From an uncultured Actinomycetota bacterium (GTDB taxonomy: Bacteria > Actinomycetota > Actinomycetes > JAHEKZ01), in the NCBI GenBank assembly GCA_963829525.1, contig CAWHIJ010000003.1:2784001-2848000 (forward strand): DNA of 64,000 nucleotides, read 5' to 3'. The notes under the pieces were generated by a model that saw nothing but the letters and a program-made list of their open reading frames with translations, was not told the DNA's origin and searched no databases. The position numbers were made by a program, and so were the translations under genes. How positions within the stretch are numbered: position 1 is the stretch's first letter; each line of letters begins with the position of its first letter. Positions 42,044 to 50,165 of the stretch are shown here, piece after piece.

Positions 42044-43264
42044 TCAGGGAGCGTGGTGGCGCAGGTGGTGGCGCACGTCGCGGAACCTCACCGCCTCGTA
42101 CGCGATCAGCACCACCAGCAGGGTGACGAGAGCCGTCAGCGATACATACGCAGGCACGACCAGTCCCATGGGGATTGCCAGCACCAACAGTCCTGCGGCT
42201 ACGGATCGCTGCACGTTGACCGAGCCCATGTTCCGCAGCCGAAAGAGGATGTGGCCGACGAGGTAGAGGGCCACCCCGCCGAAGAGCGCAACCGACGGGA
42301 TCAGCTTCAGCGGCTCACCGACGTCCAACAGACACTTCTTGAGCCCGAGTGCCAGGAAGACGATCCCCAGGATCATCAGCACGTGTAGGTAGCTGTAGGA
42401 GTCGCGGGCGAGTGCGTTGCGCTCGGCACCAGTTGCCTTGCCGAGTCGCTTCTCGGCGGCGAGCGCTACCACGTCGAAGTAGAGCCACCAGAGTGCGGCG
42501 ACGACCGTCATCCCGAAGACACTCGCGCTGACGACCGCTGCCGTCTGCGGCTCTTCGGACGCAGCCAGACCCAGCGCCACGATGGACTCACCGAGAGCGA
42601 TGATGATGATCAGGCCATGACGCTCGGCAAAGTGTGACGGCCTGACATGCCACCCCTGCGTACCCGAGATCAGCGGAGCGGTCGTCGTCAGGATCAGCGC
42701 CAGCGTCCAGAGCGAGGCACGCATCACGCCTGCCTCAAGAAAGCCTGCTATCGCGACCAACACCGGTGCGGCGAGCACACCTGGGGCCATGCGTAGCACG
42801 GCTCGGTTCATTTCTGGCTTGTCGCGGGTGGACAACGCATACAGCAAGATGAACAACAACGTCACCGTGAGGTAGGCGAAGCCGAAGAGAACGCCGTCGC
42901 CGGAAAAGGCCTCTGGAATCGCCAGTCCCATCACCAGGCCGGCGGCCATGGCAGCGAATACCACGATTCGGGAGCGAATGTCGTCGTCCACCGGGACCGA
43001 GTTCGTCAGCCAGGAGTAGCCGACCCAGGCCCACCAGACGACGAGGAGGAGAGCGATCCCTCGGAGAATTCCGGTGCCGGTGAGGTCTACGGCGAGCAGG
43101 GACGTCACCTGAGTGAAAGCGAACACAAAGACGAGATCAAAGAAGAGCTCAAGCGGCGAGACGCCGTACTCCTCGTCAGGCGGTGGTTCGTGCGAGTGGT
43201 CGTCATCTGCGACGGTGTCGGGATCAGGCATGGACTCTGGTTCAGGTTCTGGCACGGACGCCAT
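42044..43264 (-). CDS. Low temperature requirement protein A family membrane protein
   Basis: LELFFDLVFV, WWAW, HFAERHGL.IIALGES, WWLYF. Confidence 0.9.
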   Translation of the reverse strand: MASVPEPEPESMPDPDTVADDDHSHEPPPDEEYGVSPLELFFDLVFVFAFTQVTSLLAVDLTGTGILRGIALLLVVWWAWVGYSWLTNSVPVDDDIRSRIVVFAAMAAGLVMGLAIPEAFSGDGVLFGFAYLTVTLLFILLYALSTRDKPEMNRAVLRMAPGVLAAPVLVAIAGFLEAGVMRASLWTLALILTTTAPLISGTQGWHVRPSHFAERHGLIIIIALGESIVALGLAASEEPQTAAVVSASVFGMTVVAALWWLYFDVVALAAEKRLGKATGAERNALARDSYSYLHVLMILGIVFLALGLKKCLLDVGEPLKLIPSVALFGGVALYLVGHILFRLRNMGSVNVQRSVAAGLLVLAIPMGLVVPAYVSLTALVTLLVVLIAYEAVRFRDVRHHLRHHAP

Positions 43265-43296
43265 TGTGGCCGATCCCGCCTCGGTACGCTGCCTCG

Positions 43297-43704
43297 ATGA
43301 CCGCACAACGCACCCCCGACGGCGCTAGCGCCGCCCCCTTGGACTCTGCCTTGGGTCTGACAAGAGCTCCCGACGACGGTGACTCTGCGGTACTGCGGCT
43401 CGACCCCACCGCCATTGCCGTCGGCGCCGTCGAGCCGGTTACCTACCTGCATGGCGGGGCGCTGGCGACTGCAATTGACACCGCAGCCTGGGAGGCGATC
43501 ATTCGGGTCAGCGATGACACGTGGGTGGTCGCTGACATGCGGATCGATTTCGTGCGACTGGCCCGGAATGAGGTACACCGGGTCACGGCAACAGCGCGGA
43601 AGATCGGCCGCGCGCAGGCTGTAGCCGACGTCGAGATCACCGCCTGGGATGACCCTTCACGACTGGTCGCTCTGGGTCGGGTTCTGCTGGCCAAGGTCGG
43701 TTGA
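43297..43704 (+). CDS. PaaI-family hotdog thioesterase
   Basis: LHGGALATAID motif. Confidence 0.85.
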   Translation: MTAQRTPDGASAAPLDSALGLTRAPDDGDSAVLRLDPTAIAVGAVEPVTYLHGGALATAIDTAAWEAIIRVSDDTWVVADMRIDFVRLARNEVHRVTATARKIGRAQAVADVEITAWDDPSRLVALGRVLLAKVG

Positions 43705-43708
43705 TCCC

Positions 43709-44509
43709 GTGTCGCCCGAAGAGCACTACACACACGGTCACCACGAGAGTGTGCTGCGCTCGCACACCTGGCGCACCGTCGCGAACTCGGCTGCTTACCT
43801 GGCACCTCGACTGATCGAAGGCTGCCACGTGCTGGACGTCGGGTGTGGCCCTGGAACCATCACGGCGGAGATGGCAGACCTCGTAGGACCGGCCGGATCG
43901 GTTACCGGGATAGATGCATCAGCGGAGGTGGTGGGTCTTGCCGCCAGCGCCCACCAACGCTCCAACCTGACCTTCACGACCGGGGACGCCTATGCGATCG
44001 ACGCCCCCGAGAACACGTACGACGTTGTGCATGCTCACCAAGTTCTTCAGCACCTCGCCGATCCAGTTGCGGCGCTGCGCGAGATGCGCCGGGTCTGCCG
44101 CCCCGGCGGTGTAGTCGCCGCGCGCGACGCCGACTACACAGGTTCGGCGTGGTACCCGGGCGATCCGAATCTGGACCGGTGGCTCGCACTCTCGCTGGCC
44201 GTCGGTCGAGCCAATGGCGGTGAACCGGAGGCCGGGCGGCGTCTGCTCGCGTGGGCTCACCGCGCCGAGTTCGCCGAGGTGACGCCATCCGCGAGCCTTT
44301 GGTGCTTTGCGACGCCAGGGGAACGGTCGTGGTGGGCGAACCTGTGGGCCGACCGCGTCACGCAGTCGCAACTTGGGCAGCAGGCAGTGGCCGAGGGCTT
44401 CGCGACCATTGCGGAGCTGGCTGAGATCGCCGACGCCTGGCGCGCATGGGCAGCCGACCCCGATGCTTGGTTCGCAGTGCTGCACGGCGAGATCCTGGCC
44501 AGCGTCTGA
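43709..44509 (+). CDS. Class I SAM-dependent methyltransferase
   Basis: YTHGHHESVL, LDVGCGPG, HAHQVLQH, RPGG. Confidence 0.9.
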   Translation: MSPEEHYTHGHHESVLRSHTWRTVANSAAYLAPRLIEGCHVLDVGCGPGTITAEMADLVGPAGSVTGIDASAEVVGLAASAHQRSNLTFTTGDAYAIDAPENTYDVVHAHQVLQHLADPVAALREMRRVCRPGGVVAARDADYTGSAWYPGDPNLDRWLALSLAVGRANGGEPEAGRRLLAWAHRAEFAEVTPSASLWCFATPGERSWWANLWADRVTQSQLGQQAVAEGFATIAELAEIADAWRAWAADPDAWFAVLHGEILASV

Positions 44510-44517
44510 CGACGTCG

Positions 44518-44740
44518 GCGGCGGCGTCCGCGTGTCGGCACCTTGCGGTGGCGTTCGCGTGTCGGCACCTTGCTGCGGCACTTTGCTCGAGCCGCTGCGG
44601 TGGCGTCCGCGTGTCGGCCCCTTGCGGTGGCACCTTGCCCGAGCCGCTGCGGTTGCATCCGCGTGTCGGCCCCTTGCGGTGCACCTTGGCTGCGGTGGCA
44701 TCCGCGTTCAGCCCCTTGCGGTGGACCTTCTCGGCCGCTG
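44518..44740. repeat. Degenerate minisatellite, 5 units of about 27-52 bp
   Basis: Core GCGGTGGCGTCCGCGTGTCGGC(A/C)CCTTGCGG starting at about 44518, 44545, 44597, 44649, 44692. Confidence 0.85.
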
Positions 44741-44757
44741 AAGCGCCGCTCGGACCA

Positions 44758-44803
44758 TTTGGGTGCAGCAAGTGTGGTGGTAGCGACACTTGCTGCACCC
44801 AAA
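44758..44803. repeat. REP-like hairpin copy 1 (perfect 18-bp arms, 10-nt loop)
   Basis: TTTGGGTGCAGCAAGTGT-GGTGGTAGCG-ACACTTGCTGCACCCAAA. Confidence 0.92.
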
Positions 44804-44834
44804 CACCGTGATTCGCGTCCGCCACCGAGCCCCA

Positions 44835-44930
44835 CCTCGACGCGCCCACACCCGAAGACGTCCACACCCCAAGACGCCCCCACCCCAAGACGCCCCCACC
44901 CCAAGACGCCCCCACCCCAACGCGTCCACA
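44835..44930. repeat. 16-bp tandem repeat x6, G-quadruplex-prone on the minus strand
   Basis: CCCCAAGACGCCCCCA exact x3 (44867-44914) plus three degenerate copies. Confidence 0.9.
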
Positions 44931-45007
44931 GGTGGGGTCGAGGCCTGCCACCCACAGTCGACGCACGCCAAAGCCCCTCGACGGGATGCCTGGTTGACGC
45001 TGCGCCG

Positions 45008-45901
45008 GTGCCTCCGAAACCTCCGGTCGTCCTTCGCACCCGTGATGCCAACGGCCTCTTCGGCGCGTCCCATGTGCGCTGGATGGTCCAGTCGGGCCGT
45101 TGGCAACGACCGGCCAAAGGCGTGGTCGTGCGTCACTCCGGTGGCCTGTCCTTGCATGAGTCCGTCACGTGTGAGTTGTTGGCGCAGCACTCGTCGGCGG
45201 CGCTGGCCGGGCTGACGGCAGCCACCTTGGACGGATTGCGCGGATTCGACACACGCAAGATCTTCATCGTCACGCCTCACGGCACCCGGGCCCGTGTTCG
45301 ACCGCAGGTGATTGTCGTGCGCTCTCGACAGCTGTCAGCCAAAGACGTCCACCCTGTCCTGACTCCTCGTCGAACGCGGCTTCCCCGATCGATCGTTGAC
45401 GCAGCATCCTGGGCATCAACCGACCTGCGCTGTCAGGCGATCATCGCCTCAGCTGTGCAGCAAGGACTCGTCACAGCGAGTGCGCTGCATGTCGTCGCAG
45501 CTCCGCGGATGAAGCTTTCGCGACACGCGCTGATCACCGAGACGATCCGCGACGTAGGCGGCGGCTCGCTCAGCGAGTACGAGGTGCTCTTCATCCGGAT
45601 GTGCCGGAGGTACGGGCTACCCACACCCACACGGCAACGGCGGCGCAAGGATGCCGCTGGACGATGGCGCTACCTCGACGTCGACTTCGACGAGTACCAG
45701 CTGGTTGTGGAAGTCGATGGGCAGCAGCACATGGAGGCGCTCGCCTGGTGGGAGGACATGATGCGCAACAACGAGGTCGTCGTCGACGAGCAGAAGACTT
45801 TGCTGCGCTTCGCTGGGTTCGCGCTACGGCATCAGTGTGAGTTCGTCGCCGCGGTCCTGCGGCGGTTCTTCGACTCGCGGACTCCTGCATTGCCACGGTG
45901 A
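45008..45901 (+). CDS. AbiEi-like / DUF559 (Vsr-like) putative endonuclease
   Basis: GRWQRP..GVV, AGLTAA.L.G, RSIVDAASW, SLSE.E, YLD, VVEVDG.QH, D..RNN; start codon uncertain. Confidence 0.82.
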   Translation: MPPKPPVVLRTRDANGLFGASHVRWMVQSGRWQRPAKGVVVRHSGGLSLHESVTCELLAQHSSAALAGLTAATLDGLRGFDTRKIFIVTPHGTRARVRPQVIVVRSRQLSAKDVHPVLTPRRTRLPRSIVDAASWASTDLRCQAIIASAVQQGLVTASALHVVAAPRMKLSRHALITETIRDVGGGSLSEYEVLFIRMCRRYGLPTPTRQRRRKDAAGRWRYLDVDFDEYQLVVEVDGQQHMEALAWWEDMMRNNEVVVDEQKTLLRFAGFALRHQCEFVAAVLRRFFDSRTPALPR

Positions 45902-45911
45902 CGCCACCGTC

Positions 45912-45953
45912 TGGGTGCAGAAAGTGTTGCGTGAGCAGCACTTAAGACACCCA
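45912..45953. repeat. REP-like hairpin copy 2
   Basis: TGGGTGCAGAAAGTG-N12-CACTTAAGACACCCA, 10 nt after the DUF559 stop. Confidence 0.78.
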
Positions 45954-46127
45954 CACCCCCTCTCGAGCGGGGCCACCGGGTGCGGAGATTGCGATCCACC
46001 TGCAGCGCTTGTCTTCGACCTGTGCGAAGCGCGAAGAACCGGTCGTCGGTTGCCGTCCTTGCTCTTGGAGTCCGAGTGTGGTGCGGTGGCGGGCGTGGCC
46101 GAGGGTGCCGACGATGCAACCGACGGG

Positions 46128-47192
46128 GTGACTGTGACGCCGACGTGGGTGCTGCACGTCGATCTTGACCAGTTCATCGCAGCCGTCGAGATTCGCCGCA
46201 ACCCGACCCTGCGTGGTCGGCCAGTAGTCGTCGGCGGAGACGGTGACCCCTCGCGACGCCGCCAGGTCGTGGCGACGGCTTCGTACGAAGCGCGAGCATT
46301 CGGCGTCCATTCCGGGATGCCGCTCACGTCGGCCTATCGCCGCTGCCCGGACGCGGTCTTCCTGCCCTCCGACCGCGACGCCTATGACGCGGCGTCCGAA
46401 GAGGTGTGGAGTGTGGTCCGTGAGCTCCCCGTGGTCACCGAGGTGTGGGGCTGGGACGAGGCGGTTCTTGGGTCAGACACCGACGACCCCGAGTTACTCG
46501 CTCGGCAGATCCGTCGCACTGTCGTCGAACGCACCGGCTTCACTTGCTGCGTCGGTATAGGCGACAACAAGCTGCGGGCCAAGATTGCGACGGGCTTCGC
46601 GAAGGCACCGGCTGGTGCACTGCCAGATGCTGCCATGGGTGTGTTCCGTCTGACGAAGGCGAACTGGCTCGAGGTGATGGGAGACCGGCCGACCGATGCC
46701 CTGTGGGGCGTCGGCGGGAAGACCAGCGCGAAGCTCGCTGAGCTGGGGCTTTCGACTGTGCGAGATCTTGGGTCGGCCGACCTCGACGCGATGCGGGCCC
46801 GGTTCGGTCCCAAGACCGGGCCATGGCTGGTGTCGGTGGGACGCGGGATGGGCGACCGCACGGTCACGAACGCCCCCTGGGTGCCCCGTGGCCGAAGCTC
46901 AGAGGTTACCTATGAGCACGACGTCGTCGATCGCCCGGATCTAGAGGAAAAGCTGCGCCAGATCGCAGCCGGTGTCGTGGCCGATGTCGCACCGAGCGGC
47001 CGGGCGATCACCCACGTCGGGATCAAGGTGCGGTTCGTGCCGTTCTTCACCACGACCCGCGTGCACAAACTGGCATCGCCGACGCAAGACGCCCGCGTCG
47101 TCGCCGACAACGCCGTCGCGCTGCTCGACCGGCTAGAGCTTGGGCGTCCCATCCGTTTGCTCGGGGTCCGCGTCGAGCTCACCGATCTCTGA
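46128..47192 (+). CDS. dinB: DNA polymerase IV, DinB2-like
   Basis: WVLHVDLDQFIAAVE, ASYEAR.FG..SGM, GWDEA, NKLRAK, LWGVG, RLLGV. Confidence 0.93.
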   Translation: MTVTPTWVLHVDLDQFIAAVEIRRNPTLRGRPVVVGGDGDPSRRRQVVATASYEARAFGVHSGMPLTSAYRRCPDAVFLPSDRDAYDAASEEVWSVVRELPVVTEVWGWDEAVLGSDTDDPELLARQIRRTVVERTGFTCCVGIGDNKLRAKIATGFAKAPAGALPDAAMGVFRLTKANWLEVMGDRPTDALWGVGGKTSAKLAELGLSTVRDLGSADLDAMRARFGPKTGPWLVSVGRGMGDRTVTNAPWVPRGRSSEVTYEHDVVDRPDLEEKLRQIAAGVVADVAPSGRAITHVGIKVRFVPFFTTTRVHKLASPTQDARVVADNAVALLDRLELGRPIRLLGVRVELTDL

Positions 47193-47196
47193 GTCT

Positions 47197-47236
47197 GGGT
47201 GCACGAAGTGGTGCCAGGACCACACTTGGTGCACCC
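47197..47236. repeat. REP-like hairpin copy 3
   Basis: GGGTGCACGAAGTG-N12-CACTTGGTGCACCC, 4 nt after the dinB stop. Confidence 0.82.
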
Positions 47237-47260
47237 GCATGCAGGCGTTGGCTCGTGGCC

Positions 47261-48199
47261 CTAGTCGTTGTACGCCTCGAGCAGGATCCACGCGCTGCCG
47301 TCCAGCTCGTTGAGCGTCACCGTGTAGGTGACGCCGCCTGCTCCGCCCGCCTGTCCTTGACGCACCCTCAGGGCGCCCACCTGTTCGTCGATGACCACCG
47401 GGTCGGCGTTGATGTAGGCCATGTAAGCGTCAAACACTTCGTCGGGGTCACCTGTGACGCCGACGACGGCCGTGAAGCCACCAGTGATGGAGCCCCAGCC
47501 TTGCGGCCCAGCGAGGAAAGACCCTTCGGCAACCTTGAGGTCTGGGTCGCCTTCAACGTCGGTCGTGATCGTGGTTGGTCCGCCGACCCCCTCAGGCGCA
47601 TCTGGGAGGCCGTCGAGCGTCATGACACTCGACTCGGGCCACTGCACGCTGCCCAGCACGGGCCGGCCTGACTCTGTGACGTCCTGCCGCAGGTCGAGGG
47701 TGATGCCTTCGCCAACTTCGGAGACTCCGTTAGGCAGGGTGGCTGAGCAGATGACCTCGACGGCGTCGGCATCAAGGTCATCGGTATACGGCTGGGTGTC
47801 GACGCCGAGGGGCCCTCCGCGGTCGATCTCTTGGTTGCACACGGTGTCGTTGTACTGGGTCTGCAAGCCTTGGGGACCGCCCAACTGCGCAACGAGGTCG
47901 TCCGACAGGTCGACGATGTCAGCCCCTCCTGAGAGCAGGTACGCCTGCTGACCGTCGACGTACCAATCGCCGCCATCGATGGGCGACCGTTGCGACACCG
48001 AAGAGAAGACCGGGCCCACCAGCTGCGCACCCTGCGGCACGACGAGTTCAGCACCCATGGGCGTCCCTGCTGGCTGCATCCACGCGGCGTCCGGGGCATT
48101 CCACGGCTCGGTTGAAGAAACTGGCGCTGAGTCGCTGGCGCATCCGGCCGCAACAACTGCGAGGGCCGCAGCCGCCACTACCGCGATCACCGGGCGCAT
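47261..48199 (-). CDS. Acidic lipoprotein of unknown function
   Basis: Lipobox AAGC after a hydrophobic signal; AAAGGGGG SD before ATG. Confidence 0.72.
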   Translation of the reverse strand: MRPVIAVVAAAALAVVAAGCASDSAPVSSTEPWNAPDAAWMQPAGTPMGAELVVPQGAQLVGPVFSSVSQRSPIDGGDWYVDGQQAYLLSGGADIVDLSDDLVAQLGGPQGLQTQYNDTVCNQEIDRGGPLGVDTQPYTDDLDADAVEVICSATLPNGVSEVGEGITLDLRQDVTESGRPVLGSVQWPESSVMTLDGLPDAPEGVGGPTTITTDVEGDPDLKVAEGSFLAGPQGWGSITGGFTAVVGVTGDPDEVFDAYMAYINADPVVIDEQVGALRVRQGQAGGAGGVTYTVTLNELDGSAWILLEAYND

Positions 48200-48314
48200 C
48201 GCATCCCCCTTTGATGTCACGGCAGCATGGCTGACGCGGAGGGCGTCCACCAGCACCAGGACCCACCCGTGGCCCAACCGCAACCGCGCCGTAACCGGCC
48301 CCAAAACGCCACAA

Positions 48315-48356
48315 CGTGTAAGTCCCCTGGGCCTATAGGCCCAGGGGACTTACACG
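48315..48356. terminator. Perfect 42-bp palindrome, probable groEL terminator
   Basis: CGTGTAAGTCCCCTGGGCCTA|TAGGCCCAGGGGACTTACACG, 27 nt after the groEL stop. Confidence 0.82.
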
Positions 48357-48383
48357 CTGTTGTTGCTGGTGGTGCAGCGTGGA

Positions 48384-50165
<1,782 letters not shown>

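Follow-up and report, generated by a model that had tools for sequence, protein, structure and literature searches.

The window analysed here is a stretch of 64,000 nucleotides (G000:C3:2784001-2848000) from the genome of an uncultured Actinomycetota bacterium, G000, which has 2.96 Mb and 65% G+C. Our subject is a gene at 45008-45901 on the forward strand, coding for a protein with an AbiEi-like part and a Vsr/DUF559-like nuclease part, together with the 40-bp palindromes that lie on both sides of it. The first palindrome (H1) is upstream of the gene, the second (H2) is directly downstream, and a third (H3) follows the next gene, dinB. The gene most likely starts at the GTG at 45008, its frame is open from 44543, and the protein residue numbers given below are counted from 44984. 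The nearest public loci are in metagenome-assembled genomes (MAGs) with titles such as ‘Actinomycetes bacterium’ and ‘Candidatus Nanopelagicales bacterium’.

The pattern GGGTGCAnnAAGTG-N12-CACTTnnTGCACCC matches three times in the window, at 44761-44800, 45913-45952 and 47197-47236, which are the three elements that a first-pass annotation of this DNA had reported. H1 and H3 match the consensus without mismatches and H2 has 2 mismatches, both in the right arm (CACTTAAGACACCC). The annotation had seen no other copy in the window and we found none when allowing 3 mismatches; the pattern did not turn up in any of 100 dinucleotide shuffles. H1 (TTTGGGTGCAGCAAGTG...CACTTGCTGCACCCAAA) spans 44758-44803 around its 44761-44800 core and forms the upstream boundary, ending about 205 nt ahead of the GTG. 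The downstream boundary is H2 (45913-45952), which lies 12 nt past the stop codon. H3 (47197-47236) is a solo member of the same family, situated in the gap where dinB and a 338-aa gene converge, 5 nt past the dinB stop at 47192. Copies 1 and 2 bracket the nuclease gene and copies 2 and 3 bracket dinB, as had been described. Both boundary palindromes have orthologous hairpins in three related genomes, G006, G007 and G008.

The 12 nt in the middle of the element had been described as a spacer of fixed length and varying sequence. The length holds, but the sequence is not free: it mostly prolongs the stem, so that the hairpin has about 18-21 bp and an apex of 4 nt, and the stem also runs outward into the flanks (TTTGGG...CCCAAA). 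The GTCT and GTTT prefixes that had been noted beside the copies are present as well, but the flanks are palindromes too, and for this reason the prefixes are no evidence of an inversion of copies 1 and 2 around the gene. We measured stem pairing on an alignment of 26 copies from nine genomes, with up to 21 pairs. In this alignment 84.8% of the pairing cells were paired, against 34-47% when the partners were slid, and 7 of the 21 stem pairs had changes on both sides; stem columns 14/37 were unpaired in 17 of the 26 copies. The stems preserve pairing via compensatory changes. When folded as single-stranded DNA, H1 reaches -23.3 kcal/mol (z -7.3), H2 -12.0 (z -2.8) and H3 -13.9 (z -2.8). A consensus terminator scan called none of the three, and there is no T-run 3' of the hairpins, so they lack the combination of GC-rich hairpin and T-run that marks an intrinsic terminator.

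Across the whole of G000 we found six copies at up to 4-5 mismatches, the three outside the window being at C3:900889, 1040550 and 1231004. The solo copies adjoin an aminotransferase gene, a GNAT gene and a beta-CASP nuclease gene, and the 900889 site is orthologous in G006, G007 and G008. The genome also has about 85 other long hairpins, mostly at 3' gene ends.

The AbiEi-like part of the protein covers about residues 10-192 and the nuclease part about residues 196-301. The PADLOC AbiEi model matches at an E of 6.3e-12. We predicted a structure from an alignment of 16 homologues (mean predicted local distance difference test, pLDDT, 83.9), and in this model residues 10-192 are predicted to fold like the AbiEi antitoxin 6y8q_A (Z 12.0, 176 aligned) and Rv2827c (PDB 1zel, Z 8.3), with a Foldseek E of 2.3e-5 against AbiEi. 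The predicted fold of residues 196-301 resembles DUF559 3hrl (Z 6.9, 79 aligned, 24% identity), I-Bth0305I 3r3p (Z 6.4) and Vsr 1cw0 (Z 5.1); 3hrl was also found with a PDB profile search, at an E of 0.28. The DUF559 Pfam model recognises 6 of 16 homologues at E up to 0.01, the best at 6.8e-4. Residues D232, E243, D245, G246 and H249 are invariant in 16/16 sequences (motif D ... E-x-D-G-x2-H); these are the putative catalytic positions. The Pfam, NCBIfam and PADLOC scans gave no HUH family. Proteins of this kind are widespread: a profile of the AbiEi-DUF559 clade matched 15,732 cluster representatives (50% identity) at E up to 0.001, and 5,736 at 1e-10.

To place the locus among relatives, we used a genus sample of 14 genomes and an outside comparison of 27. 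A homologue of the gene was found in 26 of the 41 genomes, a tally that includes one match in the unpublished genome G025, which enters into none of the other results. Within the genus, all 13 of the close homologues examined have hairpins of one family on both sides, except at contig cuts, and these homologues occupy three loci, each of them a convergent intergenic region. At locus 1, that of the window, pairs of hairpins 0.9-1.15 kb apart in G001, G006, G007 and G008 bracket an orthologous gene beside the same LtrA and methyltransferase genes. The hairpins of this locus (family 1) occur in 9 of the 14 genus genomes and in none of the 27 outside; they total 35 sites, 11 of which flank the locus-1 homologue. 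The close homologues at loci 2 and 3 have 48-67% identity, each with its own hairpin pair. Locus 2 has family 2A (GATGTTGTTGCACT...) in G006 and G008, plus a deletion remnant in G000, and family 2B (TGCAGCGGTTTCCG...) in G003, G010 and G005. The hairpins of locus 3 are of a GGAAGAC... type in G002 and G006 and of another type in G004. In a protein tree the copies group according to their locus and hairpin family (support 98-100), and locus 3 accounts for all the further fragments, which are found in G001, G003, G007 and G008, so we concluded that the genus has three old paralogous modules.

The hairpin families follow the genes in their distribution. In a census of the 14 genomes, family 2A was present only in G006 (6 copies), G008 (3) and G007 (1), and family 2B only in G003 (3), G010 (4), G002 (2) and G005 (1). 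The genomes that hold 2A or 2B are those with the cognate gene or its remnant, and G000, where the locus-2 gene is a remnant, has only two decayed 2A copies with 4 and 5 mismatches. Solo palindromes are few, stand at the 3' ends of unrelated genes and occur almost only in genomes with the cognate gene or a remnant of it.

The module is present or absent as a unit, in either orientation (loci 1 and 2), and it is often decaying. The annotation had suggested a search for empty-site alleles with the methyltransferase gene joined directly to dinB, and these exist: in G001, G004 and G012 the methyltransferase gene overlaps dinB with no module between them. In G001 and G012 the module lies beyond dinB in the opposite orientation, and in G003 and G010 locus 1 has neither module nor dinB and carries intergenic hairpins from other families. 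Locus 2 is empty and hairpin-free in G001, has one solo hairpin in G004 and other DNA in G009, and the G006 module is inverted relative to that of G008. At locus 3, G000 is empty with half a decayed hairpin of the same family left behind. Many copies are broken: those of G008 and G005 are frameshifted, that of G002 has a stop and that of G006 an internal deletion, while G000, G001, G003 and G007 have remnants. The G000 remnant, at C3:1472647-1472990 (L123), is what a deletion left of a second module, with a truncated upstream hairpin, the last ~80 codons frameshifted and a decayed downstream hairpin. We had considered whether this was a gene inserted into the loop of a palindrome, and ruled it out because the deletion runs from inside the upstream hairpin to about codon 225.

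For a wider view of the Actinomycetota we collected 80 loci from MAGs and isolates, among them Streptosporangiaceae, Frankia, Acidothermaceae and Mycobacteriales. Sixty-seven of these loci had enough flank to compare upstream with downstream sequence, for which we set the threshold at the 99th percentile of 600 mismatched pairs. Flank similarity passed this threshold at 35 of the 67 loci; for the loci outside the genus the figure was 30 of 59, and among random G000 genes only 5 of 600 exceeded the same score. Strong hairpins were concentrated at two positions, with 35 in the 226 locus-bins at -100 to -400 and 17 in the first 100 nt downstream; 6 overlapped the gene end, and only 4 were found in the other 1,714 locus-bins. 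Across families the hairpins have a common apex consensus, GYYATRRC, with the central 4 nt self-complementary in 14 of 48. The complete 5.2 Mb genome G024, from another family, has 9 copies of AWAGGAGTS-N24-SACTCCTWT, 2 of which flank its homologue, and a second module with a single upstream hairpin. In another case (L075), a 44%-identical homologue from a distant family is flanked by a family-1-like TTTGGGTGCA...TGCACCCAAA hairpin pair.

The layout is conserved across the Actinomycetota, and each clade of the protein has its own palindrome family. The link between the hairpins and the AbiEi/DUF559 gene is real and general, and the hairpins are not generic terminators. Two predictions of the annotation are borne out by this: hairpins are enriched near DUF559/AbiEi genes, at three loci in the genus and at 30 of 59 loci outside it, and DUF559 clades co-vary with hairpin sequence, with the tree support of 98-100 given above. 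The genomic part of the outcome that it had named as a refutation, hairpins spread evenly after gene ends as generic terminators, is not what we see (35/67 loci against 5/600 random genes).

The sole near-identical pair among the 80 loci, L076/L081 (99.4%), consists of two contigs of one MAG that carry the module and a tRNA gene (anticodon CAT) and diverge directly past the tRNA 3' end. We considered transposition here and rejected it, as this is one locus assembled twice, ending at the tRNA gene; the junction looks like an island integration site or a strain variant. G000 itself has two distant paralogues, at C3:838515-839489 and 2918579-2919484 (31% and 25% identity), each with a CGTCCACAG box upstream. 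One has a hairpin with a 19-bp stem about 210 nt upstream, and the other has small CTGGGGGTA..CCCCAG hairpins on both sides.

The space between the upstream hairpin and the gene has a motif of its own. In the window it holds an array of 16-nt tandem repeats at 44843-44930 on the forward strand with CCACA-bearing units, and similar box arrays occur in other loci, for example L091. The best DnaA-box-like motif of the window leader is GCGTCCACAG, at 44922-44931 on the forward strand, and weaker boxes are found at CCACA hexamer starts 44845, 44861 and 44951. Of 33 leaders, 29 have TCCACA in the space from the upstream hairpin to the gene, whereas none of 32 controls has it. Over all loci, 69 of 80 carry the motif on the coding strand within 450 nt, as do only 4 of 137 control regions. 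The coding strand has 102 such sites and the opposite strand 17, with pairs often 29-31 nt apart. In some loci (L059, L075, L085) the hairpin itself is a pair of inverted boxes.

Over the 102 sites the consensus is GTT[A/G]TCCACAG, which fits the DnaA-box 9-mer TT[A/G]TCCACA. Table 1 of PMC4285127 gives the high-affinity DnaA box as TTATCCACA in E. coli and B. subtilis and as TTGTCCACA in M. tuberculosis and S. coelicolor, and our consensus contains the high-affinity box TTATCCACA/TTGTCCACA. The dnaA region of G000 has 4 boxes of the same form in 269621-269782 and 3 in 271320-271951, compared with 0.32 per kb genome-wide. The box does not change among proteins that share 25-40% identity, but the hairpins differ from clade to clade, and we therefore believe that a host factor reads the box and that the protein of the module reads the hairpin. 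This host factor is probably DnaA, although another factor, or the protein of the module itself, could be the one that uses the motif. In the window the boxes agree with the DnaA box at 6-7 of 9 positions and deviate at the first three (GCGTCCACA); they are putative sites of DnaA binding. We also compared the leader motif with the mycobacterial RecA-NDp/PafBC promoter motif and dropped that likeness, since the motif differs and by eye there is no TAnnnT at the right distance. Elsewhere in G000, NNGTCCACAG occurs 99 times, 45 of them in regions that a rough gene caller treats as intergenic (about 17% of the genome); they may represent a DnaA regulon or belong to a different factor.

The gene between H2 and H3 is dinB, a Y-family polymerase at 46059-47192 on the forward strand (start about 46059-46071; Pfam IMS and IMS_C). 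The module is found without dinB in G006, G007 and G008, at loci 2 and 3, and in a metagenome contig of a close relative (run X5), which joins 45985 to 47263 and thus skips dinB and H3. Since the module occurs without it in these three relatives, at the other two loci and on the X5 contig, we place dinB outside the module; it is a chance neighbour and not a partner. The annotation had proposed that the polymerase fills gaps left by the nuclease, which this distribution contradicts, and its own caveat that the adjacency might be coincidental turns out to be right. Recombination from hairpin to hairpin as the origin of the dinB-less allele was ruled out, as the X5 junctions are about 58 nt past H2 and 26 nt past H3.

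Taken together, the layout, the palindromes that differ from clade to clade, the co-distribution and the constraint on pairing show that the nuclease gene and its palindromes form a functional unit. What kind of unit is a more evenly balanced question. We would give about equal weight to either side of the proposal that it is a self-contained module, made up of a palindrome, a leader of about 200 nt with DnaA-box-like motifs, the gene for the two-part protein and a second palindrome of the same family, and that it behaves like repetitive extragenic palindromes (REPs) with their REP-associated tyrosine transposases (RAYTs) or like a homing element. Under this proposal the protein would recognise its own palindromes, probably when these are extruded as hairpins or cruciforms. 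The AbiEi-like winged-helix part would read the family-specific stem and the Vsr-like domain may cut one strand at the conserved apex, GYYATRRC, or close to it. Nicks of this kind would set off recombination or gene conversion locally, so that palindromes would be maintained and occasionally copied. The gene could also move into a solo palindrome, facing either way, and the palindrome would then be target and homology arm at once. Expression would be coupled to the replication initiator through the DnaA-box-like motifs. The scheme would work like REP/RAYT or homing, with an enzyme of the PD-(D/E)XK type replacing the HUH enzyme.

There are a number of points that weigh against this proposal. 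On the protein side, the Pfam matches of the window open reading frame (ORF) are below the curated cut-offs (AbiEi_4 at E 0.019; DUF559, PF04480, at E 0.11 and 12.9 bits against a cut-off of 20.6), and the predicted nuclease part has moderate fold Z-scores, all below 8. Co-distribution has two exceptions: G004 has 3 family-1 hairpins and an empty locus 1, and G013 has 3 family-1 hairpins and no close homologue that we could find in a genome that is 73% complete. Kinship among the genomes also inflates the co-occurrence counts. In the wider sample, flank similarity was not seen in 32 of the 67 loci, and some clades have one or two hairpins, upstream only. Copy numbers are low, with 6 in G000 and 1-9 elsewhere. 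Both flanking hairpins are intact, unlike a classical homing site, which is destroyed by insertion. Orthologous upstream hairpins resemble each other more than the downstream hairpin of their own module, and because of this we see no concerted evolution. Finally, recent movement was not seen: within the genus all copies and fragments trace to the three old loci, and we found neither the recent spread nor the identical copies at new sites that are expected of a homing gene. The annotation had proposed DUF559 as the cognate nuclease or mobiliser of a non-RAYT REP family. Of that proposal the tie between hairpin and gene stands, but the scale of a REP family (1-9 copies here) and recent mobilisation (three old loci) do not.

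Other explanations need to be considered alongside this one. The strongest of them is regulatory, and we think it unlikely but worth keeping in mind: the palindromes would be duplex operators for an autoregulating AbiEi-like repressor and would double as terminators that shield the nuclease gene from its convergent neighbours, the solo copies would be a small regulon, and the nuclease would act elsewhere, with no cutting or movement at the palindromes. AbiEi antitoxins autoregulate through inverted repeats, so the fold and model matches to AbiEi are in favor of this, and the same can be said of hairpins that lie directly past stop codons in convergent intergenic regions, of the ~85 other long hairpins of the genome, mostly at 3' ends, and of loci that are old and stable. 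A duplex operator, however, would need neither the covariation between arms at freely varying positions nor an inner ‘spacer’ that pairs. The solo copies are found at the 3' ends of unrelated housekeeping genes and not at promoters, the upstream hairpin is 100-400 nt from the gene with conserved boxes in between, and the T-tract that a terminator would have 3' of the hairpin is missing.

It is considerably less probable that the hairpins belong to the target site, in other words that the gene inserted into existing local terminator hairpins and duplicated them. In its favor, the hairpin families vary by locus, the empty locus 3 of G000 holds half a hairpin of the same family, and locus 2 of G004 has one solo hairpin. 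In that case we would not expect locus 2 of G001 to be both empty and hairpin-free, the empty locus-1 alleles of G003 and G010 to carry hairpins of other families, or family-1 hairpins to be present at other genomic sites. The TTTGGGTGCA...TGCACCCAAA pair around the homologue in a distant family (L075) and the apex consensus common to the hairpin families also argue against it.

We find it very improbable that the association is a coincidence, with the hairpins being generic factor-independent terminators or REP-like stabilisers that have no special tie to DUF559. Positions at 3' gene ends and the many other long hairpins in the genome would fit, but the 35/67 loci against 5/600 random genes, the positional profile, the match between families and clades and the co-distribution would not. 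Least credible of all, and close to negligible in our judgment, is that the DUF559 gene and dinB are cassettes with attC-like sites or that the nuclease cuts and DinB fills the gaps: the G000 order H1-gene-H2-dinB-H3 and the joint presence or absence of dinB and H3 in a close relative suggest it, but there are modules without dinB (G006, G007, G008, loci 2 and 3), the arrangement of three genomes in which dinB overlaps the methyltransferase gene seems to be the older one, there is no integrase among the ORFs scanned at 42.0-48.3 kb, the hairpin ends are GTTTG...CAAAC and not in the attC core order AAC...GTT, and the dinB-less junctions of X5 are outside the hairpins.

Returning to the proposal of a REP/RAYT-like or homing-like module, the closest parallel is REP/RAYT itself. 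Both have a single-copy nuclease gene bracketed by cognate palindromes, palindrome families specific to each paralogue with further copies at gene 3' ends, long vertical inheritance at a fixed locus, and a palindrome family that is absent or degenerate in genomes without a live copy of the gene (here with the exceptions of G004 and G013 and with kinship uncorrected). The module differs in having an AbiEi-like plus Vsr/DUF559-like enzyme and not a HUH Y1 enzyme of the IS200/IS605 kind, in having 1-9 copies per genome and not tens to hundreds, and in its Actinomycetota host and the DnaA-box-like motifs of its leader; we saw none of the doublet (REPIN) organisation. EDxHD Vsr-like homing endonucleases (I-Bth0305I, PDB 3r3p) resemble it in the predicted C-terminal fold (Z 6.4), in presence or absence at fixed intergenic sites and in frequent decay by frameshifts, stops and deletions, whereas the module has whole flanking palindromes with no split target, no recent spread that we could see, and a DNA-binding part of the AbiEi type.

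The AbiEi antitoxins of type IV AbiE systems (6y8q; Rv2827c, 1zel) share the fold, the sequence model and inverted repeats near the gene. Here, in contrast, there is a fused nuclease domain and no adjacent AbiEii nucleotidyltransferase toxin gene; the neighbours are the methyltransferase gene, dinB and the 338-aa gene, and they are different at the other two loci. IS200/IS605 elements, whose subterminal hairpins are read by TnpA, also have hairpins at both ends of a short single-gene unit; the module has no HUH transposase, its palindromes are near-perfect over 40-50 bp, and it is present in one copy per locus and not in many. The leader motif is like DnaA-box control sites in that the consensus includes the high-affinity box and boxes of the same form cluster at the dnaA of G000, while the window boxes differ at their first three positions and are putative DnaA sites. 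Both the lack of an integrase in the 42.0-48.3 kb scan and the GTTTG...CAAAC ends separate the module from an integron array.

The surroundings of the locus can be described briefly, with the caution that the context gene calls came from a home-made codon-usage caller and are approximate. Upstream are an LtrA gene at 42044-43306 on the reverse strand and an S-adenosylmethionine (SAM) methyltransferase gene at 43649-44509 on the forward strand, with its stop at 44509. In G007 the methyltransferase gene (L021 7422-7953) matches as two pieces with residues 136-217 missing and is probably broken. Between the methyltransferase stop and H1, Tandem Repeats Finder (TRF) marked repeats with 27- and 52-nt periods at 44518-44740, which we treat as context only. 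Their copy number is variable: the X5 contig omits 44552-44733 of this stretch and is ~180 nt shorter. The 338-aa gene downstream, at 47261-48277 on the reverse strand, is without a Pfam or NCBIfam match; it has two tandem paralogues in G006 (L023 7733-9609) and is absent in G007 and G010. An Rfam scan of 43000-48500 at E up to 1 gave no family, and the NCBIfam scan gave no meaningful match. Beyond these genes, at 48311-48360 and 3' of a GroEL-like gene, is a hairpin with a 23-bp stem (ACAACGTGTAAG...). Hairpins in G007 and G010 share its outer stem and its position, and G000 has two look-alikes elsewhere (C3:44487 and 656431) whose apex is of a CTATAG type. These hairpins are a second conserved hairpin family, one without a DUF559 gene.

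To our knowledge, the large nuclease family DUF559 has an established role only in Vsr and in one homing endonuclease. We found no description of this layout in the literature on DUF559, on RAYT/REPIN in Actinobacteria and on AbiEi/Vsr, supplements aside, and there is none in the excerpts of PMC3733652, PMC3424549 and PMC4285127 that bear on these topics. As a tentative idea, one that we hold to be possible and not probable, the AbiEi-DUF559 genes of Actinomycetota and their cognate palindromes may be a nuclease-and-repeat element of a new class, equivalent to REP/RAYT but with no HUH enzyme, in which a nickase of the PD-(D/E)XK type reads family-specific hairpins and expression is wired to DnaA. 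The layout provides a first concrete and testable substrate and regulator for DUF559 proteins, in the form of the cognate palindromes, their shared apex motif and the DnaA-box-like motifs of the leader. If the protein does act on the palindromes, then partnerships of gene and repeat like REP/RAYT would not be bound to HUH enzymes and would exist in the Actinomycetota, and there may be a link between the initiation of replication and a hairpin-specific nuclease.

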